Shown: positions 1,292 through 52,586 of the stretch, in pieces
How the letters are laid out: every line of letters starts with the position of its first letter
Position numbering within the stretch: position 1 is the first letter of the stretch
Translations under genes and position numbers: made by a program
From: a virus
Virus record (IMG/VR): IMGVR_UViG_3300026484_000351
Span: 32,769 to 96,768 of that record
Direction: 5' to 3' (one strand)
Length of the DNA stretch: 64,000 nt
Notes under the pieces: model-generated
What the model saw: the letters and a program-made list of their open reading frames with translations, nothing else
The model's database searches: none
Told to the model about the DNA's origin: nothing

Positions 1292-1600
1292 ATGATAATT
1301 GATTATTTAATTATGGGATTTATTCTTATATTGGGAACTTTATTTGTTGGTTTTTTGCTTGGACTTAAAAAACCAATTGATTCAGATAAGTATTTTCAAG
1401 CAATGTTTACAGGATATGAAGAATCAAAATTAAGATGGCTTTGGAAAACTTTAATATTTGGTGTTGAATATATTGTGGGTGTTCTTATATTATTCATTAT
1501 CAATACTACTTTTTATCCTGCAGATTTAATTAGAACAATTATTAAATATTTATTCGTTAGTTCAAATGACACAGAATCAAAAACGCCAAAAGCTAATTAG
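1292..1600 (+). CDS. putative membrane protein
   Basis: Two hydrophobic segments. Confidence 0.7.
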   Translation: MIIDYLIMGFILILGTLFVGFLLGLKKPIDSDKYFQAMFTGYEESKLRWLWKTLIFGVEYIVGVLILFIINTTFYPADLIRTIIKYLFVSSNDTESKTPKAN

Positions 1601-1850
1601 TTTAATTTTTGGTGGTAAAAATCTTCTCAACCAAAGTCAAATTGATATTTTAGTTCAAGAAATTACAGTCAATAAAAGCAAAGATTACTCGGATAAAATT
1701 TATTTGACTTATAATGATTTGGCAGAACAATTTAAATATTTTGGGCCTGAAATAAGTTTATCAAGAATGAAAAAAAGACAACACCTCGTTCTTAATTATG
1801 AAACACTTATTAAAAATGTTGAGACAAAGTTGCCGGAATTTTTTATTTAA
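1566..1850 (+). CDS. PE-tag family protein (ends KLPEFFI)
   Basis: C-terminal P-E-x-F-I. Confidence 0.75.
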   Translation: MTQNQKRQKLISLIFGGKNLLNQSQIDILVQEITVNKSKDYSDKIYLTYNDLAEQFKYFGPEISLSRMKKRQHLVLNYETLIKNVETKLPEFFI

Positions 1851-2059
1851 AGAAGAATAGACTTTTCACACAATGAAAATGTTTAAACAGCAAATGTGGT
1901 ACAAAAATTAGATTAAATTACGAGAAAAACTTATAAGTTAAACTGACTTAGAAATGTATTAGAAACAAGAATAAAAAAGAGAACCAGAATATGTCTTAAG
2001 TAAAAAAGATAGATATATTGAAACTAAAAATTAAAGATACAATATAAAAGGAAAGAAAA

Positions 2060-2494
2060 ATGTCACTTTTAGAAGATATTAAGAAAGCACAATTACAAGC
2101 AAGAAAAGAAAAAGATAAATTTAGAGCAGGCGTATTGACTTGTTTATACGGTGAAGTAAGTATTATAGGCAAAAATGAGGGTAATAGAGAAACTACTGAC
2201 GAAGAATGTATTAGGATTGTTACCAAATTTAAAAAAGGTGTTGAAGAAAACATTAGATTAAAAAGAGATTCTGGGTGTAATGCAAGAGACCTTGCTAAAT
2301 TTTTTCAAGAAATAGAATTTTATAATACTTTTCTTCCACAGCAAATGACTAAAGATGAATTAACAGAATACATTAAAAAAACTATTGCACTTGGTGCTAA
2401 TAATATTGGAGCGGTAATGAAAGTTATGAAAGCTGAAATTAATGGATTATATGATGGGAAAATGGCTTCAGAGTTAATCAAAAAGTTACTATAA
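2060..2494 (+). CDS. GatB/YqeY domain protein
   Basis: A.K.KDK.R..VL, EI...FLP.Q, IGAVMK...G..DGK..S patterns typical of YqeY. Confidence 0.85.
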   Translation: MSLLEDIKKAQLQARKEKDKFRAGVLTCLYGEVSIIGKNEGNRETTDEECIRIVTKFKKGVEENIRLKRDSGCNARDLAKFFQEIEFYNTFLPQQMTKDELTEYIKKTIALGANNIGAVMKVMKAEINGLYDGKMASELIKKLL

Positions 2495-2534
2495 ATTTAA
2501 GTAAGATTACTATATAATAAATAAAAGGAAATTA

Positions 2535-3398
2535 ATGGAAACAGTTTACGGAATAGATTACACAAAACCAGAAGTTATGTTACTTCAAGAAACAGGATTG
2601 GGTGTACCTGAAATGGCCGCAAGGACTTGTTATGACTCTTTTAATGCATCAGAAAATGAATGTATACCGAGATTAAATAATGCCATTAAAGCTCAGGATC
2701 TGACAGCGGCAACTCATTATTTAACCGAAGTTAATAATATTGAACACTCAGAATTACTTGATACTTTAGCTTGGACTCACTTCCATCACAGCATACTAGA
2801 ACATACAAATTTATCATTTTTAATTAAAGGCACTTCTAGAGGGGTTCTTCAGGAGCATGCTAGACACAGAATCCAAAATATATCTGTAAGAAGTACAAGA
2901 TACACAATGAGCGGAATTATTAATGCATTTGCTGCAACAGTTAAAGAATCTTCAGGAAAAAATGCTTTTATTAGTTTGGTTTTGCCAATGAATATGTTTG
3001 TGACTTCGGATGATAGTTATAACAGAATAGAAATTGGTGGAATATTTGACAAATTGATGTATCAATATAGATTACTTGGTAGAGAAAAATTTATGGAGAT
3101 AGCAGTAGCAAAATCTAGTTTAGATTATGTTAATAGTACAGAGCCTTATGCAATTAAATTTCAATTACTTCAAGATGGTAAGAAAAAAAGAAATGTTGGA
3201 GATGCGCTTAAGCACATCGTCACGGATAACTGGAAGGTTGATATGATTGTTACCATGAACCTAAGAGGATTAAAAAATTATTTCAATTTAAGAGATAGTG
3301 GAGCAGCATTTTTTCAAATAAGATGGTTAGCAAAAGCAATGAAAGAAGTTACACCTTCAAAGTATTTGGATCTGATAGTAAGAAACAAAGGTAAATAA
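2535..3398 (+). CDS. thyX: FAD-dependent thymidylate synthase
   Basis: HHSILEH, SRGVLQEHARHR...SVRSTRY ThyX signature, MNLR...F.LR. Confidence 0.95.
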   Translation: METVYGIDYTKPEVMLLQETGLGVPEMAARTCYDSFNASENECIPRLNNAIKAQDLTAATHYLTEVNNIEHSELLDTLAWTHFHHSILEHTNLSFLIKGTSRGVLQEHARHRIQNISVRSTRYTMSGIINAFAATVKESSGKNAFISLVLPMNMFVTSDDSYNRIEIGGIFDKLMYQYRLLGREKFMEIAVAKSSLDYVNSTEPYAIKFQLLQDGKKKRNVGDALKHIVTDNWKVDMIVTMNLRGLKNYFNLRDSGAAFFQIRWLAKAMKEVTPSKYLDLIVRNKGK

Positions 3399-3615
3399 TG
3401 TAAGATAATAAAATCGTCTGTTAAAAAGTGAATGAAAGTGTTGTGTAGATGCAAACATCAAATAACAATAGGTAACATCCAAGCAATAAAGATGATTTCT
3501 ATTATGGATTTTTTGGGATATGTTTGTCATATAAATGGCAAAAATAGGGTAATTTTCACAGACAGAAAACATAGTTTTTGTGAAGAATCTGAAAGAAAAG
3601 ATAAAAGGGAAAATA

Positions 3616-4311
3616 ATGAAATATAAAACATTTGAAAGTTTGTTAAATACTTGTAAAAAATTATATGAAGATGGTAGCAAAAAAGATGAACAATTAACTA
3701 AAGCATTTGGTGGTGATACTACTATATTACAAGACTGGTGGGATAATTCAATAGTAGATATTCTTAATTCAATATCAAATGAATTTGGATTAGACACAGA
3801 AAATGATAATACAATCGATTGGTTATTCTGGGATAGTATGTGCGGATATGATATGAACAATAGATATTTAAGTTTTAATGTAGATGGAATTGAATATGTT
3901 GGCTCTCCCAAAAATGTTTACTTAGATTTGAATAATATGTTAGATGAAAGATTAGGGATAACAAAAGTAAATAGTGAACCGAAAAAATACGAAATTGATA
4001 AAGATTATAAAGAAGAAAAAATTGAAACTCATTTTATACAGACAAAAGAAATAAAAGATGTTTTAAACGGTGAAACTGTTAAAGAAACCCCAAGAGAAAG
4101 AATTATTAGATATTTTATATCGGCCGGGATAGAAGTATTACAAAAAATAACAGATTTTCCTAAAGAGACTGTCTTAAGTGCTGAGATAAATGTAGATAAT
4201 TTGTATGACGAAATTAAAGAGTTAGGTTACGATAAACAACTTTTTAGAATTAATCTTTTAGATGTAAAGACTTTAAATAACAAATATAATATAGATTATA
4301 TAAAGCTTTAA
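3616..4311 (+). CDS. hypothetical protein
   Basis: ORF; start moved to the ATG at 3616 behind an AAAAGGGA RBS. Confidence 0.7.
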   Translation: MKYKTFESLLNTCKKLYEDGSKKDEQLTKAFGGDTTILQDWWDNSIVDILNSISNEFGLDTENDNTIDWLFWDSMCGYDMNNRYLSFNVDGIEYVGSPKNVYLDLNNMLDERLGITKVNSEPKKYEIDKDYKEEKIETHFIQTKEIKDVLNGETVKETPRERIIRYFISAGIEVLQKITDFPKETVLSAEINVDNLYDEIKELGYDKQLFRINLLDVKTLNNKYNIDYIKL

Positions 4312-4312
4312 A

Positions 4313-4693
4313 ATGATAATAGAAAAGAAAGAAGTTAAAACAGTATGTGATTGCTGTTTAAAAGAATTAACAGATATTGATATATGGGCAAATAACGAAA
4401 GTTTTCGAGAACTGTACTTAAAACGAACACAAGATAATATTGATTTATGCTATACTTGTGCTGGTAAAATATTTTATAGAGAAGTTCAACAAAAAGTTCC
4501 AACTGAAAAAATGCGGGAATGGATAAAAAGTCTTAGAAAAGTGGAAGGCTCAAACTTAGTTGAAAGTGCTGGTGAAACGGGAAATAGGGAGAATGACAAT
4601 TGTTCAAAGGAAATATTAGTTAAATCTAGTCCAAACAGTTCAAGTAATTCATTAAAGTCAATTGATGACCCGAAAAGTATAAAGGATTTATAA
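4313..4693 (+). CDS. hypothetical protein with CxxC...CxxC zinc-binding motif
   Basis: CDCC and DLCYTC. Confidence 0.65.
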   Translation: MIIEKKEVKTVCDCCLKELTDIDIWANNESFRELYLKRTQDNIDLCYTCAGKIFYREVQQKVPTEKMREWIKSLRKVEGSNLVESAGETGNRENDNCSKEILVKSSPNSSSNSLKSIDDPKSIKDL

Positions 4694-5166
4694 TGGGGAT
4701 AGAAATAGAAAGAAAATTTTTAGTTAAAATGAAAAAAGGGCCAATGATAAGTAATAGAAAATATGAAATAACTCAAGGTTACATTTTAAATTTACCTGAA
4801 AAAGTTATAAGAATTAGAATATTTGATAATAGTACAGCTTATATAACTATTAAAGGTAAAAATGAAAATATGACAAGACCAGAATATGAGTATAATATTC
4901 CCTGCGCAGAGGGTGCAGAACTTATAAAAGTAATGTGTACAGATATTATCACTAAAACGAGATATATATGCAATGTGAAAAATAGTAAATGGGAAGTTGA
5001 TTTTTTCCACGGAGATAATGAAGGTTTAATTGTCGCAGAAATTGAGTTAAAAGATGAAGATGATCCTATAGATTACCCAGAGTGGATAGGAAAAGAAGTA
5101 ACTGGCAAGAAGAAATATTATAACAATAATTTAATTAAAAATCCTTATAAAGATTGGAGTAAATAA
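4693..5166 (+). CDS. CYTH-domain (triphosphate tunnel metalloenzyme) protein
   Basis: EIERKFLV, R.EYEY, WEVD.F, AEIEL motifs. Confidence 0.92.
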   Translation: MGIEIERKFLVKMKKGPMISNRKYEITQGYILNLPEKVIRIRIFDNSTAYITIKGKNENMTRPEYEYNIPCAEGAELIKVMCTDIITKTRYICNVKNSKWEVDFFHGDNEGLIVAEIELKDEDDPIDYPEWIGKEVTGKKKYYNNNLIKNPYKDWSK

Positions 5167-5408
5167 TGGAAGTTTATGCAGATAAACTAGGCATTCCACT
5201 AAATGTCGGAGATAGAGTTATAATAGCCAGTGGTGAAACACAAGATTCTTCTATTTATTTAGGAACAGTTAGTGAATTATCTGTATCAAGATATGGTTCA
5301 AAACAAGTTAAAGTAAAAAAAGATGGTGGTTCAATAAATAAAAGAGAACCTGAAGATGTTTTAAGTTTAGTTATTTATGGGAATAATTGTCCCGAAGTTT
5401 TTATATAG
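5166..5408 (+). CDS. PE-tag family protein (ends NCPEVFI), KOW/SH3-like start
   Basis: LNVGDRV motif; C-terminal tag. Confidence 0.75.
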   Translation: MEVYADKLGIPLNVGDRVIIASGETQDSSIYLGTVSELSVSRYGSKQVKVKKDGGSINKREPEDVLSLVIYGNNCPEVFI

Positions 5409-5416
5409 GAGATAAT

Positions 5417-5758
5417 ATGGCAGATATTTTAAGTCAAGATGAAATTAATGCTCTTTTAGATATTCCTGATGAAAACTCAGGTGAACCAGATTTTGGTTCA
5501 CCTGAGTTTAAAAAATTATCAGATGCTTTTAACAAAGCATTTCACAAAGTATTTAAGAGAACAGATTTTTATAGAGAAAAAGTGGAACAGAGTGGTTATA
5601 TTCCTAGAATCCGGGGAACAAATCCTAAAGATATGATGGACAGTTTAAAGTGCGAAGAAGAATATTTTCAGAGTACATTAAAGAATTATAAAAAATTTAA
5701 AGAATTTCACAAGAAATTTAAGAAGATAGCAGATGAACAACCTGAAATTTTTATTTAG
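5417..5758 (+). CDS. PE-tag family protein with N-terminal FliM-like CheY-binding peptide
   Basis: AGGAG RBS, then MADILSQDEINALL; ends EQPEIFI. Confidence 0.8.
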   Translation: MADILSQDEINALLDIPDENSGEPDFGSPEFKKLSDAFNKAFHKVFKRTDFYREKVEQSGYIPRIRGTNPKDMMDSLKCEEEYFQSTLKNYKKFKEFHKKFKKIADEQPEIFI

Positions 5759-5852
5759 GAAAATAACCACAAGATATTTATAACTATATAAAAGAGACAT
5801 TTAAAATAAAAACTAGAGATTTGTATCTAAAAGTTAGTAATTTAATATTAAA

Positions 5853-5873
5853 TTAAGATTAATATGTTATAAT
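5853..5873 (+). promoter_or_regulatory. Early-type promoter
   Basis: TTAAGATTAATATGTTATAAT. Confidence 0.85.
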
Positions 5874-5898
5874 TATATAAACAAAAAAAGGATATAAT

Positions 5899-6096
5899 AT
5901 GGCATTTAGTTACAAAGATTTAATGAGAAGCATCAAAGCAACACAAGCAAACATTGATGAGATTCAAGAACAAATTAGTTTATGTGATAGTGAATACGAA
6001 TTGGCTCAATTAACAGCAGAGTTAGACCATTATGAAACTCAATTAAAGGTAACTGAAGATTATATTGATCGAATAGTGGCTAGAGGAAGATATTAG
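5899..6096 (+). CDS. small coiled-coil hypothetical protein
   Basis: ORF after promoter and RBS. Confidence 0.7.
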   Translation: MAFSYKDLMRSIKATQANIDEIQEQISLCDSEYELAQLTAELDHYETQLKVTEDYIDRIVARGRY

Positions 6097-6423
6097 TGTT
6101 TCTCTTCCACTTGAAATTACCTAAATTGAGAAAATCGGTTATAATCGGAAAAACATGGATAAGGTTTTTTGAAACCTTAAAAGAAGAACAAATATATCAG
6201 AACTGAAGTAATATTATCGGTAGAACTATTTAATAGAAGATTATTCAAGAGATATACCACACAGCATTACGAGGAGATTTATACAAAAATAATGTTACTT
6301 AAACTTTTGTATTAGCACAAGATGCTAAAGTTGTAATTGAGTGTGTATTGGTTAGAGGAACAAATGAAAATTTGCAACTTTAATAAGCAATTCGATTAAT
6401 ACTCCAAAATAGAAAGGAAAAAT

Positions 6424-6696
6424 ATGTCTAAAAACTCATGGGTAGTAATTATTGGTGGAGGTTTAATAGGGTTAGGTTTGGGTGTAATGGGAATAACTTT
6501 TAATATGCCATTATGGTGGTTTTTAAATTTACCATTAATTATGTTATTAAATCAGTTTAGCGGAGAAATAGGTGACTTTTTCTCAGATTGGTACAACGAT
6601 ATCATAAAAGGTGAGGTAGTAAATATAATTATTCCCAGAGAAGAGATTAAAGAAAAGCGAAAAGAACAAGCAAAATCTAAGAAAAAATATATTTAA
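6424..6696 (+). CDS. membrane protein ending KKKYI
   Basis: Two hydrophobic segments, basic tail. Confidence 0.7.
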   Translation: MSKNSWVVIIGGGLIGLGLGVMGITFNMPLWWFLNLPLIMLLNQFSGEIGDFFSDWYNDIIKGEVVNIIIPREEIKEKRKEQAKSKKKYI

Positions 6697-6714
6697 CAGA
6701 AAAGGAAAGAAAGA

Positions 6715-8007
6715 ATGAACATAACACAAGTATTACCTATAATGGCGGCAAGTAAAAAGACGGGCGATGTTGTACTAATGAGAGGACTGCATGGAATAGG
6801 TAAAAGCGCTATAACAGTACAATATGCAGATCAGTATAATCTTGGTCTAGAGATATTAATATTATCTCTAATGGAACAAGGCGATTTAATCGGAATACCA
6901 AACATTACTAATAATACAACTACTTGGGCAGCACCTGACTGGTTAAATAATTTAAGAGATAAAGCATGGCCTAAAAGATTTAATTTTGAAGATTTAGAAT
7001 TTAAAGATAAAAATTTTGAAGAAGAAGTCAACAAACATTCAAAAAATGCAATACTTAGAGAAAATTTAAATAAATTATATAACGAGTTTTATAATGTTAA
7101 TTTAATTGAGCCTGTTTTAACAAAACAGGATAATGTTTCTTGTAGATTGTCTAAAGAAACTGTATTATTTGTTGATGAATATTCAAGAGCTGGTGCAGAC
7201 ATACATAACAGCACAATGCAATTAATATTAGACAAAAGACTTCATAATCATGTATTGCCTTATGTTAATGGTGTACAAACACAGATAATTGCTGCAGATA
7301 ATCCCGCTGACGGTGATTACCATGTAACTGAATTAGACCCAGCCAAATTAGATAGATTTTTAATTATTGATGTAGAAGTTGATGCAAAAGCGTGGTTGGC
7401 TTGGGCAAGAGAAAATGAGGTTAATTCTATTGTAAGAGATTTTATTATGAATAACCTAACAAAAATCCATTATGTTCCGGAAGACCAAAGTCAAACAGGA
7501 GCAACACCGAGGTCTTGGACTATGCTAGGAAAATTTGTAAACCTTTTTGAAACTATTCCTGAAGAAAGTATTTTTCCAATTATTAGAGGTAAAGTGGGTA
7601 GCTCATTAGGAGCACAATTCTATACATATTACAATGATTATAATAAAAATGTAAGTATTGAAGACATTCAAAAGATTATAGACCAAGAATTCTTTAAACA
7701 AGGCGATAATATTGACTTAGAGAAAATTGGAAAAGTTGTTAAGGAACTAACAAAAGAAATGGAAGGCGTAACTAAAATGGAGTATGCAGAAGAATTATTT
7801 TCGGCCATTAAAACTGAAATTAACGATGCTAAAGGGGTTGAAAATGTAATCCATGTTCTTGGCTTTTTATACTCACTTGATTTGGAAATCCTAACTTCAT
7901 TACTTAAAGAATGGAAAAACAATGAAAAAGAAGCATTTTATGGATTAATGAAACTTGATCCTAAGAAGGCACTTGCCTTAAAAATTAAAAGTAAAGTTCA
8001 AAAATAA
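6715..8007 (+). CDS. MoxR-like AAA+ ATPase
   Basis: Walker A GLHGIGKS, Walker B LFVDE, A.NP...LDPA..DRF, TPRSW sensor. Confidence 0.9.
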   Translation: MNITQVLPIMAASKKTGDVVLMRGLHGIGKSAITVQYADQYNLGLEILILSLMEQGDLIGIPNITNNTTTWAAPDWLNNLRDKAWPKRFNFEDLEFKDKNFEEEVNKHSKNAILRENLNKLYNEFYNVNLIEPVLTKQDNVSCRLSKETVLFVDEYSRAGADIHNSTMQLILDKRLHNHVLPYVNGVQTQIIAADNPADGDYHVTELDPAKLDRFLIIDVEVDAKAWLAWARENEVNSIVRDFIMNNLTKIHYVPEDQSQTGATPRSWTMLGKFVNLFETIPEESIFPIIRGKVGSSLGAQFYTYYNDYNKNVSIEDIQKIIDQEFFKQGDNIDLEKIGKVVKELTKEMEGVTKMEYAEELFSAIKTEINDAKGVENVIHVLGFLYSLDLEILTSLLKEWKNNEKEAFYGLMKLDPKKALALKIKSKVQK

Positions 8008-8255
8008 TGAATAAAATACTTTTAAATGATGTTTTAAAAGTTAAAAATGATTTTTGGGAGGGAAGGAACCCAGAAATTATAGGTTTAGTATCAGAAGTTC
8101 ATACCGATTCTAAAGTATATTTTATGAATTTTATAAATGGTATAGATGCACTCCCAACTGTTTCTAATGGGTTTTATATTAAAGAAAATGATATAATTGA
8201 AAATTTTGGAAATATCAAAGTTTTTAAAGATAAGTATCCAGAATATTTTTTATAA
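8007..8255 (+). CDS. PE-tag family protein (ends KYPEYFL)
   Basis: Coupled to the AAA stop codon (TAATG); C-terminal tag. Confidence 0.8.
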   Translation: MNKILLNDVLKVKNDFWEGRNPEIIGLVSEVHTDSKVYFMNFINGIDALPTVSNGFYIKENDIIENFGNIKVFKDKYPEYFL

Positions 8256-8434
8256 TTTTTCTTATGAGCATAAGTTAGATAGTTATGGAAAAATAAATAA
8301 TAAAAATATGTTGGTCGATTATGGCAACTAAAACAAGTCCGGGTATAGGTGATTTTCTACTACACTCAAGTAAATCTGGTAGAAATATGATAGTTGAGAT
8401 TATGGAAATTTTTATAACGGATTCTTGTAGTGTT

Positions 8435-8596
8435 ATAATAGCAAAGAAATATAAATTTATATAAAGAATATAAATCTATATAATAGTATAAAAAGTTATA
8501 CTATCCTTATTTACTGCTTCTAAGTAACTTCTATAGAACAATTTCTATAGTGGTATAAGAACTCCACAGTCATTAATTTTTTATACTGGTTAGGTA
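8435..8596 (-). ncRNA. putative TnpB omegaRNA/right-end region
   Basis: Non-coding IS end downstream of tnpB with several hairpins; nearly identical at 53121-53284. Assignment rests on known TnpB biology. Confidence 0.5.
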
Positions 8597-9775
8597 CTAT
8601 TCTATCCTAGCCAGTCTTAATGCTTCATTTAGTATGTTTATAGAAGCATTTATATCTCTATCTTCTTCAAAACTGCATTCAGAACATGAGTATATTCGCT
8701 CTTCGAGCGATAAACTCTCTTTTACTGAACCACATCTTGAACAGGTTTTAGAGGAAGGATAATAAGTATCTATTCTAGATATACTAACTTGGTTTTCGTT
8801 AGCTTTATACTCTATTTTAGATACTAAATCACTCCATGCTATATTAGATATAGCTTTAGACAATCTTCTATTTTTAATCATATTTTTTACTTGAAGACTT
8901 TCTAAACCTATAAAATCATATAGATTGATTAGTTTTTTGGATACCTGATGATTTATAGTGTTTCTTGAATTCTTTATTTTATTATGCACCCTAGCTACTT
9001 TTAATCTAGCTTTATTTCTATTTTTGCTTCCTTTCTTCTTTTTACTTAGTTTTCTTTGTTCTAATTTAAGTTTTCTTTGGTACTTATATGTTAATTTATG
9101 ATTTTCTATAGTATATCCATCAGAACATATTATCATATCTTTAAGACCTAAATCTATACCTACTTTCTTATTGGTTTTCTTTCTATTATTCTTTACTTCT
9201 ATCTTATGTGTTATGGTTATTCAGTACTTATCTAGGTTATCTTTTTCTATAGTAAAACCTGTTATTTTACCTATATTATGGTTTGTTTTATGTTTCTTAA
9301 ATTTTATTTTATGGTCTTCTTTAGTATAAGATGACTTATTGCTTTTATTTAATTGTATATGGTTATCTTCTATTTTAACTCTAGAACCAGCCTTCATACC
9401 TATAGTCTTTTTAGATGTCTTTTTACTCTTAAATTTAGGATATCCTCTATCTGGTTGTTTTATAAATTCCTTCATACCAAGATATAAATTAGATAAACTA
9501 GATTGTATAAAATCATTAGGTAATTTATTAATAAAAGAATATTCTTCTTTTAATTTAGTACTAAAACCTACTATACCAGTTTGATTAGGTATCTTAGGTC
9601 TCACTTGACCTTTATTTTTGCCTTTTTCTATAGTGTACACACCAAAATAATTATCTTGTATCTTACCTAAAACATTATTATAGGTAAATCTATAGAGGTT
9701 AAATTGTTTATCTAATAATGCTTTTTGTTTAGCATTAGGATATAGTCTATATTTGTTTGTTCTTACTAATTCCAT
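8597..9775 (-). pseudogene. tnpB: TnpB RNA-guided nuclease with one in-frame TGA at 9221-9223
   Basis: KYRLYPN N-terminus; reading through the TGA gives KY*ITIT...VGIDLGLKD (RuvC-I), then E.L.V, SSKTCS.CG, C..C...DRD.NAS.NI. Confidence 0.9.
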
Positions 9776-9808
9776 ATTTAACCCCTTTATATTTATTTAT
9801 ACAATTAT

Positions 9809-10408
9809 TTATATAATATTATTTTTAAGATTTTCTTGTACAGATTTTAACATCTTTCTTCTATTACTATACATTTTCATACTAAAATGATGTATTATAG
9901 ATATTAAATCCTGTGTTAATTCAGTTTGAAAATCTTCTTCTTTGGTAAAATTTATATATACTATATCTGTTCCATAACTACTAAACCATTTTTCTATATA
10001 ATTATAGCCAAATCTAGTAAGTCTATCTTTATAAGAAATATATATAGTATCTATATTACCATTTTGTACTTCTTTAATAAGAGCATTAAAACCCTTCCTA
10101 TCTTCATTCATTCCAGAAGCTATATCTTTATATACCTTATCTACTATAATACCTTTAGAAGCAATAAATTCCCTTAATATTTTTTCTTGCTTTTCTAAGT
10201 CTTCTTTTTGTTTAGTATTACTTACTCTACAATATATAACTTGATTTTTATCTTTGGGTTTTGTGAGCATTAAACTATCTATATCATATAAGAAATTCCT
10301 ACTATTTAATTCTTTGTATTTAACCTTTCCTTGTCTTCTATAATTATTTAAAGTTTGACTTGTAATGCCCAAAATCTCTTTTATTTTCTTAGCGTTTATA
10401 TAACTCAT
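9809..10408 (-). CDS. tnpA: IS607 transposase (N-terminal HTH + serine recombinase)
   Basis: YCRVS, D.ASG, DRLTRFG, EL.QDLISII..FS.KMY. Confidence 0.95.
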   Translation of the reverse strand: MSYINAKKIKEILGITSQTLNNYRRQGKVKYKELNSRNFLYDIDSLMLTKPKDKNQVIYCRVSNTKQKEDLEKQEKILREFIASKGIIVDKVYKDIASGMNEDRKGFNALIKEVQNGNIDTIYISYKDRLTRFGYNYIEKWFSSYGTDIVYINFTKEEDFQTELTQDLISIIHHFSMKMYSNRRKMLKSVQENLKNNII

Positions 10409-10622
10409 TTATTTCCTTTTATATTTATTTATATATTAAGTAATTTTATTATATAATTTATTATAGATAGAAAGTTATTAATTATAGGTGCAAAATAATG
10501 TTTATTATTGGAGAAAAAGGTCCGGCACCTCTTAAAGGTACTATTGCTTATGTTACTAATTATGATTTATGGATAAATTGCAATTTAGAAGAAATCCCTA
10601 GTAAATATCCGGAGGTATATAT

Positions 10623-11102
10623 TTGAAAATAAATGAATTAAAAATAACTCACACCAATGGAGATTTATATTCCGGATATACGATTGAACTTAACAATATT
10701 ACTAAATATTTTGAACACAATGAGAAATTTCAAGAAGCAGGAATGTTCACAACTAGAAAAATGAAACAACTTTTAGAGGACCCAGAATTCCTAGACTTTG
10801 TAATAAGTAATTACAAGTCTTCAGAACCAGTTGTTGATTTTGATTCTCTAATAGTAGAAAAGGGAGTATCAAAATCAATGCAGGTGCTATTTTATCGTTC
10901 TAGAATAGCAATGAATTATTTTGGAGTGATAACCGAAATGTTAATGAAACTCCGAAATCGAAAAACGATTTTAATTAAACTAGAAGACCCCTTAAAAAAC
11001 TTTAATATAGAAACAATCGTAAAACTACAAAATAAAGAAGAAATGAAGGAGTTTTTTGATTATCAATATATTGAAAACAAATACCCGGAGATGTATATAT
11101 GA
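10623..11102 (+). CDS. PE-tag family protein (ends KYPEMYI)
   Basis: TTG start overlapping upstream stop; C-terminal tag. Confidence 0.75.
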   Translation: MKINELKITHTNGDLYSGYTIELNNITKYFEHNEKFQEAGMFTTRKMKQLLEDPEFLDFVISNYKSSEPVVDFDSLIVEKGVSKSMQVLFYRSRIAMNYFGVITEMLMKLRNRKTILIKLEDPLKNFNIETIVKLQNKEEMKEFFDYQYIENKYPEMYI

Positions 11103-11365
11103 AAAAAAGAGAAGTATTAAAAGGTGATTATGTTTTAATAAAAGACCGTAATGATATTCAGCATGTTGTAAGAGTAGATGCTGTTGTAAAAATAGATACG
11201 ATAAAACCTTCAAAAAAAGTCCAAGCGTATGCAAGTACTATTATTAAAAGTATAGATAAAAGTAATCTTAATACCACCACATTTTATGATAAAGATGTAC
11301 AACTAATATTAGGAGCTATAAATGCTCGAACACTAGAAACAGAATATCCTGAGATATTTCTATGA
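11099..11365 (+). CDS. PE-tag family protein (ends EYPEIFL)
   Basis: ATGA coupling; LKGDYVLIK start; tag. Confidence 0.8.
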   Translation: MKKREVLKGDYVLIKDRNDIQHVVRVDAVVKIDTIKPSKKVQAYASTIIKSIDKSNLNTTTFYDKDVQLILGAINARTLETEYPEIFL

Positions 11366-11631
11366 TTGGTAAATTTGTATTAATAAAAACAGATAATATT
11401 ATTGAAAAAGGTTCGAAGCACTCAGAAGATCAACCTTGTTATTTTGTGGTAAATATAATAGAAAAGAGTAAAATTGGCAGAGATTGGAAATCAAAAGTTC
11501 TTTGGTTTTATGATGTTGCATATAATGAATTACATTTTTTTAAAAAAGATATATTGTTTGAATTTGAAAAAGAACCATCTTGGAGAGAGATGGAAAACAT
11601 GGAAGGAACACATCCAGAGTACTGGTTATAA
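11362..11631 (+). CDS. PE-tag family protein (ends THPEYWL)
   Basis: ATGA coupling; tag. Confidence 0.8.
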   Translation: MIGKFVLIKTDNIIEKGSKHSEDQPCYFVVNIIEKSKIGRDWKSKVLWFYDVAYNELHFFKKDILFEFEKEPSWREMENMEGTHPEYWL

Positions 11632-11974
11632 AGGATTAAAAATAGTTTATGCAATGGTAGATGACCAACTGAATATTTTAAAAATATATTCAGAAAAGGG
11701 TTTAGATGACATTAGAAAATTAAGAACTATCCATGTAAGTAAATTTGAAAAATTAAAATTTAATGGAAATTATGGAAGTTCAACTGTTTTTCCGTTTTAT
11801 GATATTAATGAGGCAAAAATAGTTACTGCTATTAAACAGGTTCAGGGATTAAAGGAACAAGCAATTAATTATGAGAATAACGACTGGAAAATTAATGAAA
11901 ATTTCAAAAGTATAGATAAAACTCAAGAGTGGTTGAAAAAGAAGGAAAAAATTTATCCAGAGTACTTCGTTTAA
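11474..11974 (+). CDS. PE-tag family protein (ends IYPEYFV); true start probably near 11640-11655
   Basis: AAGGA at about 11630; tag. Confidence 0.7.
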   Translation: MAEIGNQKFFGFMMLHIMNYIFLKKIYCLNLKKNHLGERWKTWKEHIQSTGYKGLKIVYAMVDDQLNILKIYSEKGLDDIRKLRTIHVSKFEKLKFNGNYGSSTVFPFYDINEAKIVTAIKQVQGLKEQAINYENNDWKINENFKSIDKTQEWLKKKEKIYPEYFV

Positions 11975-11981
11975 TCTTATT

Positions 11982-12003
11982 TTAATATTTATTATGTTAT
12001 AAT
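11982..12003 (+). promoter_or_regulatory. Early-type promoter
   Basis: TTAATATTTATTATGTTATAAT. Confidence 0.75.
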
Positions 12004-12254
12004 TATTATAGAAAAACACATAAAGGTTATATAATGACAAAAGCGATAAACAACTACAGAATAAGTATTAATTCAAATGACAGATTAACTGGAGAGTTTA
12101 CAGGTGGAAAAGAATATTTTGAAACTGAAGCAGAAGCAGTGATAGTTTTTAATAAATTTGTTTTATAAGAATTAGCACCAAATAATAACTTTCTATTTAT
12201 AGAGAAATATATAAAAATGAAATTTTAGCAAGTTTTGATACAACAGGAATATAA

Positions 12255-12875
12255 ATGATACATAATTTTTTAATAGAGTCTTTGAATGATATTGAAGGTA
12301 TTAATAAAATACAGCATAAACTACAAGATACTTTGTTAAGACCAGCAAAAATCCCTAAGGGAACAGCGGCATTATATTTTAGTGCAAGTGAACTTTCTCG
12401 AATAGTTACTAAATTTTTAGATATTAAAAAGAAGTTTATTGAATTAGATTTATTTAAAGATGAGTTTGATAGATGTAATTATTTTAAAGTTTCTGAATTA
12501 GATACACTTACTTTAATAGAACATAATTTGATGCTTTGGGATTTAAATTATGAAAGTTTATTTGCCACTTTAAAGTATGAAATAAACGATTTAACAGAAA
12601 GAATAAAAAGAGCACCATTAAATTGGTATAATAAGCATGCTTATTTAATAAATAATGAGACTTATATTGACAAAAAATATTTTAGTATTTACAGAATAGT
12701 TGATAAAAATTGGGATACTTTAACAATCACCTTAGAATGTTGTAAGTATAGTACCCATTCGAAAAGTCTTTCAATAGATATAGTTAAAATTAAATGTGAT
12801 AGTATTAGAGATATATATCAAGAACAGTTTTTAAGTGAAGAAATAGGGAAGATTTACCCCGAATGGTTTTTATAA
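12255..12875 (+). CDS. PE-tag family protein (ends IYPEWFL)
   Basis: ORF directly upstream of the vWA gene; tag. Confidence 0.8.
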   Translation: MIHNFLIESLNDIEGINKIQHKLQDTLLRPAKIPKGTAALYFSASELSRIVTKFLDIKKKFIELDLFKDEFDRCNYFKVSELDTLTLIEHNLMLWDLNYESLFATLKYEINDLTERIKRAPLNWYNKHAYLINNETYIDKKYFSIYRIVDKNWDTLTITLECCKYSTHSKSLSIDIVKIKCDSIRDIYQEQFLSEEIGKIYPEWFL

Positions 12876-12884
12876 GGAGAAATA

Positions 12885-14228
12885 GTGGAAAAAGCAACAG
12901 TAGAGAAATTATATAACGAGCAGGATAGGGAATGTATAGATTCCACCTTTGCTAATATGTTTTCTAGTCCAGCATACAGAGAAGATTATGTTTTTTATGC
13001 TCATATATTGGCGCAATGTAAAGTAATTATGACAAGCGATGTTGATTTAGCAGGAGTAAATTTTACAATTAACAAGTATAACCTTTTTATTAATCCAGAA
13101 AGATTTCTTGAATTACCCCTTTTGGAAAGAATGTCAGTACTTAAACACGAATCGCTTCATATTCTTTATGGGCATATTTCAAGAAAGGGAGACAGAAACC
13201 ATAAATTATTCAATAACTCTTCAGATGTTGCAATTAACCAGCTTATCACGAGAGAACATTTACCTGAAGGCTGTCTTTACCCTGATACTCTTGAAAAGGC
13301 TCTAAAGGAACAAGGTTATAAAATAAAAGTACCTGAAATGCTTTCAGCAGAACATTATTATGATTTACTTCCTTCAGAAATAAAAGATAATGCCGAGAAT
13401 GGACAATGTAATAGTGGAGAAGGAAATCCTCAAAATTGTGAAAAATGTGGTGGAGCTGGTAAAGAAGAAGACGGAAAACCTTGTAAACATTGTAATGGAA
13501 CGGGTAAAGAATTCTACAAAGGTTTATTTAAAGATAATCCACTTGATGACCATAGCAAATGGAATGAGTCAGAAGGAGAATCTGACTTACAACAGGACAT
13601 CACAAAAAGAATGATTGATAAAAGTATTGAAAAATCAAGAGGAAACACGCCTTCTCATTTAGAGTATTTTATGGAATTATGGGGGAAAAAAGCACAAATT
13701 AGTTGGAAAAAAGTTCTTAGAAATATCGCAAGTAATAAAAAAGCAAATAAAGTAACAACTATTATGAGAAAATCAAGACGGTTCCCAAATAGACTTGAAA
13801 TTAGAGGCCATAAGAAAGACAAAATCTTTGATATTGTAGTTATATTAGATGTTTCGGGGAGTATGTCAGATAAAGAAATTATTACTGGACTGGCAGAAAT
13901 TCGTGAAGTAGCAAAACTTACGGCAAGTACTGTTAAAATTATTCAAGTTGATACAGAAGTGCATGCAGTAGAGGATTTTACGCCAGGCAAATTTAATAGA
14001 AGTGCAGGTGGTGGAACAGAAATGCTACCAGGATTTAGATACATTAAGGAGAATAAGGTATCGCATGATGCTATTATTTTAATTACAGATGGATGGATAG
14101 AGGATATTTCATACTGGGCAAAAGAAGGTGTAGCACCAAAATGTCCTTTAATGATTCTTAGCACTGAAGCAGATATTGATGTTTCAGGATACAGAAATTA
14201 TAGATTTTTCAAACTAGATCAAGCGTAG
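12885..14228 (+). CDS. DUF2201-type metallopeptidase + vWA protein with inserted CxxCxGxG zinc finger
   Basis: HESLH (HExxH), D.AINQ, CEKCGGAG/CKHCNGTG, MIDAS DVSGS, GGT, ITDG. Confidence 0.9.
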   Translation: MEKATVEKLYNEQDRECIDSTFANMFSSPAYREDYVFYAHILAQCKVIMTSDVDLAGVNFTINKYNLFINPERFLELPLLERMSVLKHESLHILYGHISRKGDRNHKLFNNSSDVAINQLITREHLPEGCLYPDTLEKALKEQGYKIKVPEMLSAEHYYDLLPSEIKDNAENGQCNSGEGNPQNCEKCGGAGKEEDGKPCKHCNGTGKEFYKGLFKDNPLDDHSKWNESEGESDLQQDITKRMIDKSIEKSRGNTPSHLEYFMELWGKKAQISWKKVLRNIASNKKANKVTTIMRKSRRFPNRLEIRGHKKDKIFDIVVILDVSGSMSDKEIITGLAEIREVAKLTASTVKIIQVDTEVHAVEDFTPGKFNRSAGGGTEMLPGFRYIKENKVSHDAIILITDGWIEDISYWAKEGVAPKCPLMILSTEADIDVSGYRNYRFFKLDQA

Positions 14229-14238
14229 GAAAAACATT

Positions 14239-14502
14239 ATGAATTATTATGAAAATGCTAATATGCAATTTGAAAAAAGAGAACCAATTAGATATTATTT
14301 TGATGGTAAAGATCTCAAAGGAATTTATAATATAGATTCTGGAAAAAATCTAAAAAAATCTATTTTAAAAAGAAAATTCAAGATAGGCTCATTAAAAAGT
14401 GTTGATATAGCCGAATATAGAGAACTAGGATTATTTCATAGTTATCATAAAAGTATTTCAAAAGAAAAGGCAGAAAAATTATATCCAGAATTTTTTATAT
14501 AA
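14239..14502 (+). CDS. PE-tag family protein (ends LYPEFFI)
   Basis: C-terminal tag. Confidence 0.8.
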   Translation: MNYYENANMQFEKREPIRYYFDGKDLKGIYNIDSGKNLKKSILKRKFKIGSLKSVDIAEYRELGLFHSYHKSISKEKAEKLYPEFFI

Positions 14503-14511
14503 GGAAAAAAT

Positions 14512-14793
14512 ATGAGTTTAAAGAATATTAAAGTATTTAATCAAAATGAATATATTGGTAAAATTATCAAACTTCAAATGAAAGGTACTAACAATATAGG
14601 TTTTTATGAAGTTGTTAAATTTAACAGTTATATATCTTGTAGATTAATTTATACTATTGAGAAAGGAACAATAAGAAAACAATTTAAAACTAATAGATGT
14701 GTCTTATTTGACATTAAAGATTTTTTTAATAGTGAATTCTTAAATTGTAAACCAGAGGAATTTGAAATTAAATACCCTGAATATTTTATATAG
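14512..14793 (+). CDS. PE-tag family protein (ends KYPEYFI)
   Basis: C-terminal tag. Confidence 0.8.
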   Translation: MSLKNIKVFNQNEYIGKIIKLQMKGTNNIGFYEVVKFNSYISCRLIYTIEKGTIRKQFKTNRCVLFDIKDFFNSEFLNCKPEEFEIKYPEYFI

Positions 14794-14801
14794 GAGAGAA
14801 A

Positions 14802-15017
14802 ATGAATGAATTAGATAAATATTTTAATAAAAAAATGTCATTCAAAGACATATTTACTAAAGATGGAAGTGGTTCTTTTAGTGAAGATTTTGATGTCCGT
14901 ACTATAAAGGACAGAAAAATGGAAAATATAAAAAATTATATCAAAGAACATTATGATATGAGTTTGGATGAATTAGATGAATTTATAATGAAATATGAAC
15001 CTGAAAGGACTGTATAA
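14802..15017 (+). CDS. PE-tag family protein, variant (ends YEPERTV)
   Basis: P-E at -5/-4. Confidence 0.7.
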   Translation: MNELDKYFNKKMSFKDIFTKDGSGSFSEDFDVRTIKDRKMENIKNYIKEHYDMSLDELDEFIMKYEPERTV

Positions 15018-15460
15018 TGGGTAAAATCTTATACGCAATTAAACCAATAGGTGTCACAAAGGGGTTTGGGCGAGTATATAACAAACAGTTATATATTGGT
15101 AAGTATGAAGTTATTAATGGTACTGACATTAAATTAGTAGAAGTGCAGGACTTTAATAAAAATATAATTAAAAGACATTCATTTCCAGCGTCACTAAAAT
15201 ATGGCTCATACAATGGAATACAAACAGAAGATGTTGGTAGTGAAAATATCTATTCTGGAATGCCCAACACCAATTCGGTAATATTATTTGTAACATTAGT
15301 CGAAGCCAAATTACAAAAATTAATAGATATAAAATATATTAAGATATATTTTGAAAAGGAACTAAGAAAACTTCAAGAAAGAGCAGAAAATAATCTACCT
15401 AAAAATATTGAAGAAATTTTTGAGGAATATAGTGGTAAATACCCGGAATATTTAATATGA
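15017..15460 (+). CDS. PE-tag family protein (ends KYPEYLI)
   Basis: C-terminal tag. Confidence 0.8.
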   Translation: MGKILYAIKPIGVTKGFGRVYNKQLYIGKYEVINGTDIKLVEVQDFNKNIIKRHSFPASLKYGSYNGIQTEDVGSENIYSGMPNTNSVILFVTLVEAKLQKLIDIKYIKIYFEKELRKLQERAENNLPKNIEEIFEEYSGKYPEYLI

Positions 15461-16020
15461 TTAATTCAGGTGAGCATTTTGAAAATTATATTAGTCACAA
15501 AGATATTAAAATTTATTTTGATAACAATAAAGATAAAACCCAAATGAAATTATTTACCTCTTATTATGGATATATAACTGTTAATGGCAGAAAAACATCC
15601 CTTCAAGAAGATTATAAAGTTGAACCAGTTGAAATTGTATTATCTGTAGAAAATAAAGAACTTTGTGACCCGTTCAGAAATATGGATAATCTTATGAATG
15701 GATTAGATGAAAAACATAATACAGGTTTAAGCTCAGATAGTTTTAAAAACCCCGAGTTGACAGAATGGCAACCTTTACCCAAAGATACATTAACCTATTT
15801 TGATTGGCATGTAACTTTAACAACTCAAAATTCAGATATAGAAATTGATAAAGGAATTATAGAAAGACTTAAATTTTTTCATACAATGGAACAGGCAGAA
15901 ATGAATTATATTAAAATGATGGAATATAAATTTAAAGAATTAGGAATATTTGAAGCATTTGATAAATATAATGAATTATATAATTCATTAAGTAATAAAT
16001 ATCCTGAAGAATTTATATAA
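15457..16020 (+). CDS. PE-tag family protein (ends KYPEEFI)
   Basis: C-terminal tag. Confidence 0.8.
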   Translation: MINSGEHFENYISHKDIKIYFDNNKDKTQMKLFTSYYGYITVNGRKTSLQEDYKVEPVEIVLSVENKELCDPFRNMDNLMNGLDEKHNTGLSSDSFKNPELTEWQPLPKDTLTYFDWHVTLTTQNSDIEIDKGIIERLKFFHTMEQAEMNYIKMMEYKFKELGIFEAFDKYNELYNSLSNKYPEEFI

Positions 16021-16060
16021 AAATGAACAATTACTTAAAAAACTTTATTTAAGGAACTAT

Positions 16061-16258
16061 ATGAATACAGAAATAATTATTGAACCTTTAAATTTTCAAA
16101 GCAATTATTTTATTTGTGAAGTAAGATATAAAGTTGGTAAAAGTATAGTCGTTGCCGAAGGAATTGTAATGCTTACATTAAAAGACTTAACTAAAACAGT
16201 TCCTTTGCATTGTACTTTAAAGAACTTTGAGGAAGAGCATCCAGAGTTTTTCTTATAA
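16061..16258 (+). CDS. PE-tag family protein (ends EHPEFFL)
   Basis: C-terminal tag. Confidence 0.75.
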   Translation: MNTEIIIEPLNFQSNYFICEVRYKVGKSIVVAEGIVMLTLKDLTKTVPLHCTLKNFEEEHPEFFL

Positions 16259-43185: not shown

Positions 43186-45045
43186 ATGGCAACAATAGGA
43201 ATAGATTTAGGAACTACAAATAGTGCGGTAGCAGTATATGAAGCAGGGGAAGCAAAAATCATCCCAAATGCAGAGGGCAAAAATACAACACCATCAATAG
43301 TAGCGTTTACAAATAAAGGTGATGTTTTAGTTGGTGAACCAGCAAAAAGACAGGCCGTAACAAACCCAACAGGAACAATTGAAGCGGTAAAAAGAATTAT
43401 GGGTATGCAATTTAATGAACCAAAATGCAAAGAAGCTCAAGAAAAAGTACAGTATAAGATTGTAAATAAAAATGGACTGGCTGCAGTTGAAATTGATGGC
43501 AAATCATACACCCCACAAGAAATTTCGGCTAAGATTTTATCGAAATTAAAAGACGATGCAGAAAGTTATTTAGGTACAACTGTAACAGATGCAGTTATTA
43601 CAGTACCAGCATACTTTAATGATGCTCAAAGAAAAGCGACACAAGAAGCAGGGACAATTGCAGGACTTAATGTATTAAGAATTATAAATGAACCAACATC
43701 TGCTTCACTAGCTTATGGACTTGATAAAAAAGGTGAAGAAAAAGTAGCCATTGTAGATTTAGGCGGCGGCACATATGATGTTTCTGTAATGGAAATAGGT
43801 GATGGGACTTTTGAAGTTTTATCGACAGATGGAAATGCTTTTTTTGGTGGAAAAGATTATGATCAAGATATTGTTAATTATTTAGCTGGAGATTTTAAGT
43901 CTAATAATGGGGTAGATTTAAGAAATGATAGTATGGCAATGCAAAGATTATTTGATGCAGCTGAAAATGCTAAGAAAGAGTTAAGTTCAACAATGGAAAC
44001 AGAGATAAACTTACCATTTATTACAGCAGATGCAACAGGACCAAAACATTTAGTCGTATCTTTAACAAAAGCAAAATTTGAAGAGTTAATTAGTGAAAGA
44101 ACAAAAGAGGTTACAACTCACTTAGAAACTGCTTTAACTGATGCAGGTTTAACACCAAATGATATTAACGAAGTTATTATGGTTGGGGGTTCAACAAGGA
44201 TTCCGTTAGTGCAAGAGAAAGTCCAAAAATTCTTTGGTGGTAAAACATTAAATAATTCAGTTAATCCCGATGAAGTTGTTGCTGCTGGTGCAGCAATACA
44301 AGCAGGGGTATTAAGTGGAGATGTTAAAGATGTTCTTTTACTTGATGTTACACCATTAAGTCTTGGTATTGAAACAATGGGTGGTATTATGACTACTCTT
44401 ATTGAAAAAGGTACAACAATTCCAGTTAAAAAATCTCAAGTATTTAGTACAGCAGAAGATAATCAACCAGCAGTATCTGTAAGAATAGCACAGGGTGAAG
44501 CAAAATTATTTGAAGATAATAAAATGTTAGGTAATTTTGAATTAGGTGATATTGCTCCAGCTCCAAGAGGAACTCCTCAAATAGAAATCACACTTGATGT
44601 AGATGCTAATGGTGTATTAAATGTTTCAGCAAAAGATAAAGCGACAGGAAAAGAAAATAGTGTAACTATTACTGGTAGTACGGGTTTATCTGATAATGAA
44701 ATTGCTAAAATGGTGGCTGATGCCGAAAAAGCAAATGCTGATAAAAAAGATAAAGTTGAAGCAATTGAAGCAAGAAATGCGTTAGATAGTTTAATTTCAC
44801 AAGCAAGAAAAACTAATGATGAAGTTAAAGATGAAAGTCTTACGACGGCAATTAGTACAGCAGAAGAAAAATCAAAAAATGAGGTTTTAACTAAAAGTGA
44901 CTTAGAAACAGCTAAATCTGATTTAGAAAAAGTGCTTATGGAAGTAATGCAAAAACAAGCACAACACGGAACATCAAATGAAGCATCTGAACAAGCCGAA
45001 AAGGTTAATGATAGTAGCACCATTATTGATGCGGAGGTAGAGTAG
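43186..45045 (+). CDS. dnaK: chaperone DnaK (Hsp70)
   Basis: [39 protein letters not shown]. Confidence 0.98.
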
Positions 45046-45061
45046 GTTTATCCTACTCTAC
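45037..45061 (+). other. perfect 10-bp hairpin over the dnaK stop codon
   Basis: GTAGAGTAGG-TTTAT-CCTACTCTAC, no U-tract. Confidence 0.7.
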
Positions 45062-45074
45062 AAAAGAGTTAGAA

Positions 45075-45587
45075 ATGGCTACAAAAATTCACGAAGATTT
45101 AACTGAAAACGAAAAATTGGACACGGCTGAAGTAGAAGAAAGAGAGCAATCAGATGTTCCCTATGAAAATACAAAACTTAAAGATAAAATTAAAGCATTA
45201 GAAAGCGAAAATCTCAGAACTCATGCTGATTTCCAGAATGTAAAGAAAAGACTAGAAAAAGAAAAATTAAATTCTATAAAATTTGCACAAGAACAATTTT
45301 CTCTAGACTTATTAGAAGTATTGGATTCTTTATATATCGCAGTACAAGTTATACAAGATGCAAAAGAAAAGGAAGGTATAACAAACACAATTAAAAAACT
45401 AACAGATATTTTTAGTAAATATCATATTTCTGAAGTTACATATGAAGTATTTAACCCTAACTTACATCAAGCAGTACAGACAATTAAATCAGAAAAAGCT
45501 TCAGGAGAAATTGTTCAAGTTCTAAGGAAAGGTTATACAATCCATGATAAAATACTAAGACCAGCAATGGTGAGTATATCTCAATAA
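45075..45587 (+). CDS. grpE: nucleotide exchange factor GrpE
   Basis: [29 protein letters not shown]. Confidence 0.95.
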
Positions 45588-45597
45588 AAGGAAGAAT

Positions 45598-46353
45598 ATG
45601 AAAGATTTATATAAGACATTAGAGATAAGTGAAAATGCAACCGAACAGGAAATTAAAAAAGCTTATAGAAAATTAGCAAAGAATTATCATCCTGATGTCA
45701 ATAAAACCAAAGAAGCCGAAGAAAAATTTAAAGAGATAAATGCAGCTTATGAAGTCTTAAGCGATAAAAATAAAAAAGCACAGTATGATAGATATGGTGA
45801 TCAAATGTTTAACCAAAACAATTATGCCGGCCATCAACAACATTCTGAAGATATTTTTGAACAGATGTTTAGAGCTAGCTTTGGGTTTAATAATCAAATT
45901 AATCTCGATAGAACCGTAAGGGTAAGAGTACCATTAGATAAAGCTATAAAAGGCGGCAAGATAACTATTGAAGGCAATACTATATCATTTCCTAAAAATA
46001 TTAGTAATGGCACAAAACTAAGAGTAAAAGGAAAAGGCAAAACTTTTCAAGGGCAAACTGGAGATTTATATGTACAGTTAGTTGTTGTCGGGGATAATAA
46101 CTTTGAAGTAAATTATAACACTATACATACAAGCGTTGAATTAAATCTAAAAGAAGCTATTTTTGGAACACATAAAGAAATAAATTTATATGGAGATATA
46201 ATAAAAATAAAAATTCCTAAAGATATTAAATATGGACAACAACTACGAATTAGAGGAAAAGGTCTACATAATGATAATATGATAGTTCATTGTATTTATG
46301 TTTTACCAAAGTCAGACGAAATAAAAGAAAGTGATTTAAACTTTGTAAAATAA
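45598..46353 (+). CDS. dnaJ: DnaJ/CbpA-type co-chaperone without zinc finger
   Basis: J-domain with HPD, LRV.GKG, GDLYV. Confidence 0.92.
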
Positions 46354-52301: not shown

Positions 52302-52576
52302 ATGAAAACAAAAAATATTTTTTATAAAAAAGGTTTTAAAGCTTATATTTTTAAGAAATTAAATAGCAGGATTTATAGAACAAAAGGCGAATCTTCTAAA
52401 ATTGGTTTAGAAATAGAACTGGGCGATATGTTTTTTGAGAAAGAAGATTATTGAGATGAAGTAGAATATAGAGCAATGCAAGCATTTATAAATGCTTTTG
52501 GTGATTTAAGACTATATGCTTTTGAATATAGGCCTATAGGAGAATAGAAACTTACACCCCTGAATTGTTTATTTAA
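52302..52576 (+). pseudogene. direct repeat copy 2; decayed PE-tag gene (ancestral end ETYTPELFI)
   Basis: TGA where copy 1 has TGG, plus a 1-nt loss near 52540. Confidence 0.8.
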
Positions 52577-52586
52577 AGGAATATAA

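Follow-up and report, generated by a model that had tools for sequence, protein, structure and literature searches.

The window analysed here, the whole 64,000-nucleotide stretch spanning positions 32,769 to 96,768 of IMG/VR record IMGVR_UViG_3300026484_000351, comes from a 96.8-kb viral record with a GC content of about 27% and an estimated completeness of 37%. At 5417-5758 of the window (stop included), the forward strand encodes P0001, an orphan protein of 113 residues that begins MADILSQDEINALLD and ends QPEIFI, and whose translation reads MADILSQDEINALLDIPDENSGEPDFGSPEF...KKIADEQPEIFI. The gene, its parts and its upstream neighbor are as follows.

5166..5408, + strand: upstream gene of 80 codons' worth of protein (80 aa), likewise PE-tailed (…NCPEVFI)
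5407..5411, + strand: AGGAG ribosome-binding site of P0001, 5 nt 5' of the ATG and overlapping the TAG stop of the upstream gene; read directly
5417..5758, + strand: CDS of P0001; translation, and 11 relatives by exhaustive hmmsearch
5417..5461, + strand: copy of the FliM N-terminal (EIDAL) peptide, MADILSQDEINALLD, residues 1-15; conservation, PDB match and vent FliM match
5429..5458, + strand: core of this head, LSQDEINALL, residues 5-14
5459..5506, + strand: acidic, Pro-rich flexible linker, residues 15-30; composition, and mean pLDDT of 64 for residues 11-20
5489..5518, + strand: second conserved motif, D-[YFL]-G-S-P-E-F-[EK]-K-L, residues 25-34; family alignment
5624..5737, + strand: long Lys-rich helix carrying the tail, residues 70-107; AF2 pLDDT 88-97
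5741..5755, + strand: C-terminal PE tail, P-E-I-F-I-COOH, residues 109-113, preceded by Q and not by the usual Y/F/H

The only alternative start is a TTG at 5387, which would add ten residues; this codon falls within the upstream ORF and is not preceded by a ribosome-binding site. In each of the 11 relatives of P0001, the protein starts with M-A/V/P-x-[IF]-L, that is, at the Met of the peptide. The ATG behind AGGAG that the sequence-only reading had proposed, and which exposes the peptide at the very N-terminus, is thus upheld. Downstream of the head, residues 15-30 include seven acidic residues and three prolines. The AF2 model of P0001, built from the family alignment (pLDDT 82), contains three helices and a hairpin: the first helix is short (residues 7-14), the second spans 29-41 and precedes the hairpin (45-56), and the third, a long one at 70-107, continues into the PE tail. 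In this model, the head consists of the short helix 7-14 with coil flanks at a mean pLDDT of 64-74, placed ahead of the body, and it is predicted to be exposed on a flexible segment rather than buried in the fold. Translation and model agree with the earlier description of an acidic, Pro-containing linker followed by a helical body ending QPEIFI.

The body itself has no recognizable relationship to FliM, as had also been stated. P0001 has no Pfam match at E ≤ 10, PF02154 and FliMN_C included, and with only 113 residues it lacks both the middle domain (PF02154) and the C-terminal SpoA domain (FliMN_C); for comparison, a true FliM on contig L041 matches PF02154 at 5e-76. No fold or family was found for the body in the PDB (Foldseek), the ESM Atlas, Pfam or PHROGs. 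The PHROGs matches of P0001 are weak, and the head alone matches phrog_31201 (residues 1-15, E 0.015). A scan for promoters and terminators returned sites no commoner than in shuffled sequence.

Given the amino-acid composition of the record, the chance expectation for the pattern L-[ST]-Q-x-E-I-[DN]-[AES]-L-[LM] in its proteome is 1.1e-5 occurrences. It is found once in the six frames, at residues 5-14 of P0001, which is the FliM register. When the first 30 residues were compared with 177,635 distinct PDB sequences, the sole match was chain B of 4IGA, annotated as flagellar motor switch protein FliM, with 10/15 residues identical in an alignment that starts at Met1; we take this chain to be the T. 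maritima FliM peptide crystallised on CheY. An exhaustive hmmsearch of 1.84 billion cluster representatives identified 11 relatives of 83-113 residues, and scans of IMG/VR gave no relatives of the family. Across the family alignment, M1, L5, Q7, E9 and I10 do not vary, and L13 and L14 scarcely do, the head being the most conserved part of proteins whose middle diverges with insertions and deletions. In the second conserved motif, G27 and F31 are invariant and D25 and S28 nearly so; the P-E-F inside it recalls the PE tail.

The phage is large and T4-like, with genes for UvsW, topoisomerase II subunits and GIY-YIG nucleases, and its DNA is present in hydrothermal-vent metagenome runs; no RNA run is among the sequencing runs listed with phage DNA. 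Its FolE is closest to those of Campylobacter phages (47% identity), and for its topoisomerase the nearest sequences are those of the Vibrio phage Va1/pv27 group (46%), followed by Campylobacter phages (37%). Scanning the metagenomes for the head peptide yielded mostly true fliM genes among the matches listed. On low-GC contigs, the true FliM genes (PF02154 + FliMN_C) begin MADILSQEEIDALLEVVDE or MAEFLSQDEIDALLDIADEDGG, and the head variants of the phage family parallel both FliM types, represented by P0001 (MADILSQDEINALLDIPDE) and P0004 (MAEFLSQDEIDALLDICDDE); the MAEFL start occurs in P0004, P0006 and P0010. The first seven residues of P0001 (MADILSQ) are those of the MADIL-type vent FliM genes, and over 20 residues aligned from Met1 15-16 match. 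The N-terminus of P0001, in which LSQxEIxALL had been named as the FliM N-terminal motif, is a genuine, conserved and in-register copy of the EIDAL peptide.

The contigs with MADIL-type FliM carry the operon flhF-flhG-x-fliA-fliM-fliY, which is of the Campylobacterota type; adjacency of fliM and fliY has been described for C. jejuni (PMC6946799). Judging from GC content, habitat, FliM match and distant kinship with Campylobacter phages, the host is probably a flagellated vent member of the Campylobacterota. Searching for the host through the IS607-type TnpA was uninformative, the best match being an Omnitrophota MAG at 55% identity. This IS607-type insertion (window 8597-10408, - strand) lies inside the array of PE-tailed genes, where it is the only minus-strand block in the region; it comprises a serine-recombinase TnpA (9809-10408) and a TnpB split into two ORFs, matching HTH_OrfB_IS605 and OrfB_IS605 with a Cas12f1-like TNB domain. 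The phage also encodes a full Hsp70 set at window 43186-46353, with DnaK (HSP70, E 2e-230), GrpE (1e-39) and DnaJ (J domain + C-terminal domain). Neither a receiver domain nor a MinD/FlhG-like gene was found in the sequenced part of the phage (37% of the genome), so that any ligand of the head would be the host's.

A degenerate DNA pattern revealed at least four further protein bodies with a FliM-type head at their start, namely the CP21_042 family of Campylobacter phages and proteins at three loci, L015, L050 and L008:

L015:6722-7120, - strand: head-bearing protein of 130 aa, adjoining a phage TET-associated glycosyltransferase (TAGT) gene
L050:10001-10600, + strand: head-bearing protein of 199 aa on a 54-kb low-GC vent contig
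L008:4460-5840 (with the downstream gene): protein of 152 aa starting MRDILSQDEIDALLNG, on an IMG/VR contig of 152,642 bases, 51% GC, provirus class

From residue 19 to the end, these head-bearing proteins show no similarity between groups, and because the groups share nothing past residue 18, the FliM-type head behaves, at the sequence level, as a portable module. Members of the CP21_042 family start MAQILSQEEIDALLDD or MILSQEEIDALLECGS and occur in 29 Campylobacter phage records (Firehammervirus, Fletchervirus and phage DA10). Like P0001, they are small phage proteins (121-126 aa, annotated as hypothetical) with the start M(AQ)ILSQEEIDALL. Unlike P0001, they have an unrelated body and no PE tail, and the phages that carry them have neither tail arrays nor DUF2201. 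Comparing residues 19 to the end of CP21_042 with the P0001 body by BLASTP gave an E value of 0.55 over 27 aa, which does not place the two in one family by body similarity. As the same head sits on these untagged proteins, including those of all main cultured Campylobacter phage groups, it would work without the tail. The homologue in Campylobacter phage DA10 (MN530981.1, 20674-21036) has 37% identity over 99% of the query, and the 35-kb genome of this phage is far below Eucampyvirinae genomes in size.

The L050 contig and the vent FliM contigs come from one sample series; the other genes of the L050 contig have no family match, and it carries no PE tails in 20 kb. Directly downstream of the L008 gene lies a protein of 291 aa starting MSNVLSQEEVTALL, with a PF02154 match at E 2e-12 and no FliMN_C match, and whether this locus is host flank or phage is ambiguous. 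No gene with a FliM head was found in Vibrio phage Va1 and four other tail-rich phages.

At its other end, P0001 shares the PE tail with many genes of the same phage:

1566-16258 and 52559-52865, + strand: PE-tail genes of the window

The tail pattern has 17 matches on the forward strand of the record, none on the reverse strand and none for a reversed control pattern. The consensus drawn from 123 distinct tails, taken from the present record and related contigs, reads [LIF]-K-E-x-[YF]-P-E-x-[FY]-[ILV]-COOH. The P0001 tail has the core of this pattern (P at -5, E at -4, aromatic or Leu at -2, Ile, Leu or Val at -1, then the stop) without Y/F/H/N at -6 or the Lys/Glu-rich stretch from -9 to -7. 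Its Q at -6 is shared by 8/12 of the aligned family sequences, two others having E, whereas Y/F/H/N occupies this position in 115/123 tails generally. By sequence, then, the P0001 family carries a variant PE tail, and QPEIFI or a close variant ([QE]-P-E-[ILM]-[FLY]-[IL]) is kept in 10 of its 12 aligned sequences.

In the tails, Pro is encoded by all four of its codons and all three stop codons occur. In tails whose stop shares bases with the following ATG (…ATATGA), Pro-Glu is written CCG-GAG, which doubles as a Shine-Dalgarno sequence for the next gene, and GAG is used in 38/47 cases. A DNA-level element (ribosome-binding site or recombination repeat) was considered as the origin of the motif and rejected, the amino-acid motif being equally strong in the 76 uncoupled tails, in which the stop does not overlap the next start and GAA is used in 62/76. 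These codon choices indicate that the PE tag noticed at the C-terminus in the sequence-only reading is real and selected as a peptide.

PE tails number 41 in a complete 103.5-kb IMG/VR phage (G005), and in the cultured Vibrio phage Va1 (MK387337.2) there are 66 on the forward strand versus 1 on the reverse; Campylobacter phages and Alteromonas phage AD45-P1 have 0-3 matches to the pattern. The tail is also seen at IMG/VR loci L060, L069, L070 and L081; contigs with a GC content of 25-43% contain as many as 15 within 13 kb. Ten PE-tailed proteins were scanned and gave no family above threshold, and we found no published mention of the motif. C-terminal handles read by one partner are known from ssrA/ClpX degrons, the clamp-binding tails of T4 gp43, gp33 and gp55, and the acidic tails of T7 gp2.5 and gp4. 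The PE tail resembles these in being a short C-terminal peptide common to many unlike proteins, and differs from them in sequence and in occurring on dozens of genes per genome. Many large phages encode ClpP. A ClpP-family protein is encoded at L033:15365-16111 (record coordinates, upstream of the window; PF00574, E 7e-13), and ClpP-family matches occur in 4/5 tail-rich records, including Va1, G005 and G009; phage ClpP is a further candidate reader of the PE tail.

Two further genes of the record, both inside the array of tail-bearing genes, bear on how the tail may be read:

6715..8007, + strand: MoxR-type AAA+ ATPase (AAA_5; Pfam PF07728, E 1.4e-7), the candidate tail reader in the model of the sequence-only reading
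12885..14228, + strand: HExxH metallopeptidase fused to a vWA-like domain (DUF2201_N + DUF2201; Pfam E 5.3e-18 and 2.6e-11)

The DUF2201 protein keeps the peptidase motif HESLH and the MIDAS-like DVSGS...TDG of the vWA domain.

In FliM, the EIDAL motif (LSQxEIDALL, also found on some FliY/FliN proteins) likewise occupies this position counted from Met1 and is followed by an acidic flexible linker. The two proteins differ in what comes after it, PF02154 and SpoA/FliMN_C in FliM and, in P0001, an orphan body of 90 aa that is helical and PE-tailed. CheY binds this conserved N-terminal motif of FliM (PMC6946799). We propose that P0001 acts as a decoy by which the phage imitates the docking peptide at the FliM N-terminus. 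Its first ~15 residues, presented on the flexible acidic linker before the small helical body, would copy the ligand-capture peptide used by FliM in the likely host group. If the infected cell produced it in quantity, P0001 would compete with the ~34-45 FliM copies per motor for phosphorylated CheY; flagellar switching would then be uncoupled from chemotaxis, and the motor would stay in its default rotation. FliM-N peptides bind CheY-P with only micromolar affinity, and for this reason such a decoy would need high expression. Through its ending QPEIFI, P0001 would belong with the many PE-tailed small proteins of this phage, and a common partner presumably handles the set.

From the peptide, its register and conservation, the match to local FliM genes and the recurrence on other proteins, we infer binding of CheY-P and an effect on swimming. 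A decoy for the ligands of the FliM N-terminus, with CheY-P as the most likely ligand, has in our estimate a somewhat better than even chance of being the correct reading and ranks first among those considered; on the same sequence comparisons, the phage probably tampers with the swimming control of its host through P0001. The earlier proposal of a FliM mimic thus stands as far as a genuine peptide copy on a non-FliM body is concerned, and it had overlooked FlhG, the second documented ligand of the EIDAL motif.

In polar flagellates, the EIDAL motif is the docking site of the MinD-like ATPase FlhG, and it is reported to be both necessary and sufficient for this in Shewanella. If the head bound FlhG instead, P0001 would disturb the control of flagellar number, and in Campylobacterota, which have no Min system, also the placement of the septum, which would let the phage halt or misplace the division of its host. 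FlhG contacts FliM/N via the FliM N-terminus (PMC12826062), C. jejuni uses FlhG in place of Min and also to place the division septum (PMC6946799), and the best-matching FliM contigs encode flhG three genes upstream of fliM. Against this weigh the gel filtration in V. alginolyticus, which showed no direct FliM-FlhG complex, and the pace of flagellar number control, which acts over generations and is slow compared with a lytic cycle; no stable interaction between FlhG and the C-ring was detected in C. jejuni either. Sequence alone cannot separate FlhG from CheY-P as the ligand, and we rank the FlhG decoy, including its effect on the septum, second and regard it as unlikely. The same ligands could serve as an address rather than as a target, the head placing P0001 with its body and tail as cargo at the cell pole or flagellar base, through CheY-P or FlhG and without titration. 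The bodies do differ between phage groups, as if each delivered a different cargo. As an anchor, however, CheY-P would be poor, because it diffuses and stays at the motor only briefly, and no cargo function is recognizable in the P0001 body; we consider this reading very doubtful. Least probable of all, with barely any weight in our ranking, is that mimicry is absent; the head would then be no more than a common capped amphipathic helix, its likeness to FliM-N arising by chance or from structural causes. Looser [FL]TQ[DE]EIDALL strings (e.g. FTQEEIDALL) do occur inside unrelated phage proteins, in a recurring 149-codon frame (about position 50) and in a 180-aa protein, and for that reason the helix part alone is not diagnostic. 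The case for mimicry rests on the N-terminal register and on the MADILSQ lead-in, seven residues before the helix that are identical in local FliM genes. The low expectation of the motif per proteome, its retention in a family with a diverging middle, and its recurrence on unrelated phage proteins also argue against a fortuitous likeness.

A last reading gives the two ends of P0001 a joint function. As a bait-plus-tag adaptor, its head would catch CheY-P or another FliM-N ligand while its PE tail docked on the MoxR AAA+ / HExxH-vWA pair, which would degrade or remodel the captured protein. The head and the tail are both conserved in the P0001 family, the tail is selected as a peptide, and the vWA and peptidase motifs of the DUF2201 protein are intact. 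Moreover, and suggestively, the DUF2201 gene has tailed genes within ~2 kb in each of four tail-rich genomes: this record (G000), G005 (the complete phage), G006 and Vibrio phage Va1. The link between tail and pair nevertheless comes from gene neighborhood and from nothing physical, and the neighborhood is not constant: Alteromonas phage AD45-P1 has the MoxR/DUF2201 pair with just 3 tail-pattern matches and no tail arrays, and three tail-rich fragments have no DUF2201 match, though these are just 17-46% complete. The head does not need the tail, since Campylobacter phages bear it on untagged proteins and have no DUF2201. A tail on a fifth or more of the phage's genes fits a self-degron, a timer or a common assembly handle at least as well. 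That the tail is read by any partner we infer. Degradation through the adaptor we hold to be improbable. The bait-plus-tag layout, which the sequence-only reading had found to fit P0001 exactly, survives as a description and as a test case, both ends being conserved; with the head also present on untagged proteins, it is not evidence for the model. Extended to the whole set, the PE-tailed proteins would form a phage-encoded bait library, each catching a different host protein and handing it via its tail to the MoxR AAA+ / metallopeptidase-vWA machine to be destroyed or remodelled, and P0001 would be the first with a readable bait (FliM-N) and a predictable target (CheY-P). We regard this extension, too, as a long shot; if it were true, the library would constitute a targeted protein-degradation system in phages.

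Viruses of eukaryotes use short-linear-motif mimicry, and the phage twitching-inhibitor Tip shuts down a host motility machine. By analogy, P0001 would be a small accessory viral protein that copies or targets a docking interface of its host. In the literature on phage proteins with FliM, CheY or EIDAL, we found no phage copy of the flagellar-switch peptide. New here are the conserved family that joins this head to a PE tail, the two head variants paralleling the two FliM types, and FlhG as an alternative ligand.

Vent phages and every main group of cultured Campylobacter phages carry the FliM-type head independently of one another. Campylobacter phages include ones considered for biocontrol, and their adsorption depends on motility; the phages with CP21_042 are cultured and provide a practical test system. 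With a bait of known specificity, P0001 may in turn offer a natural handle on the function of the widespread PE tail. Should CheY-P or FlhG prove to be bound by the head, a copied peptide of 15 residues would routinely let phages of flagellated bacteria take over the steering of their hosts, or their flagellar and division control.
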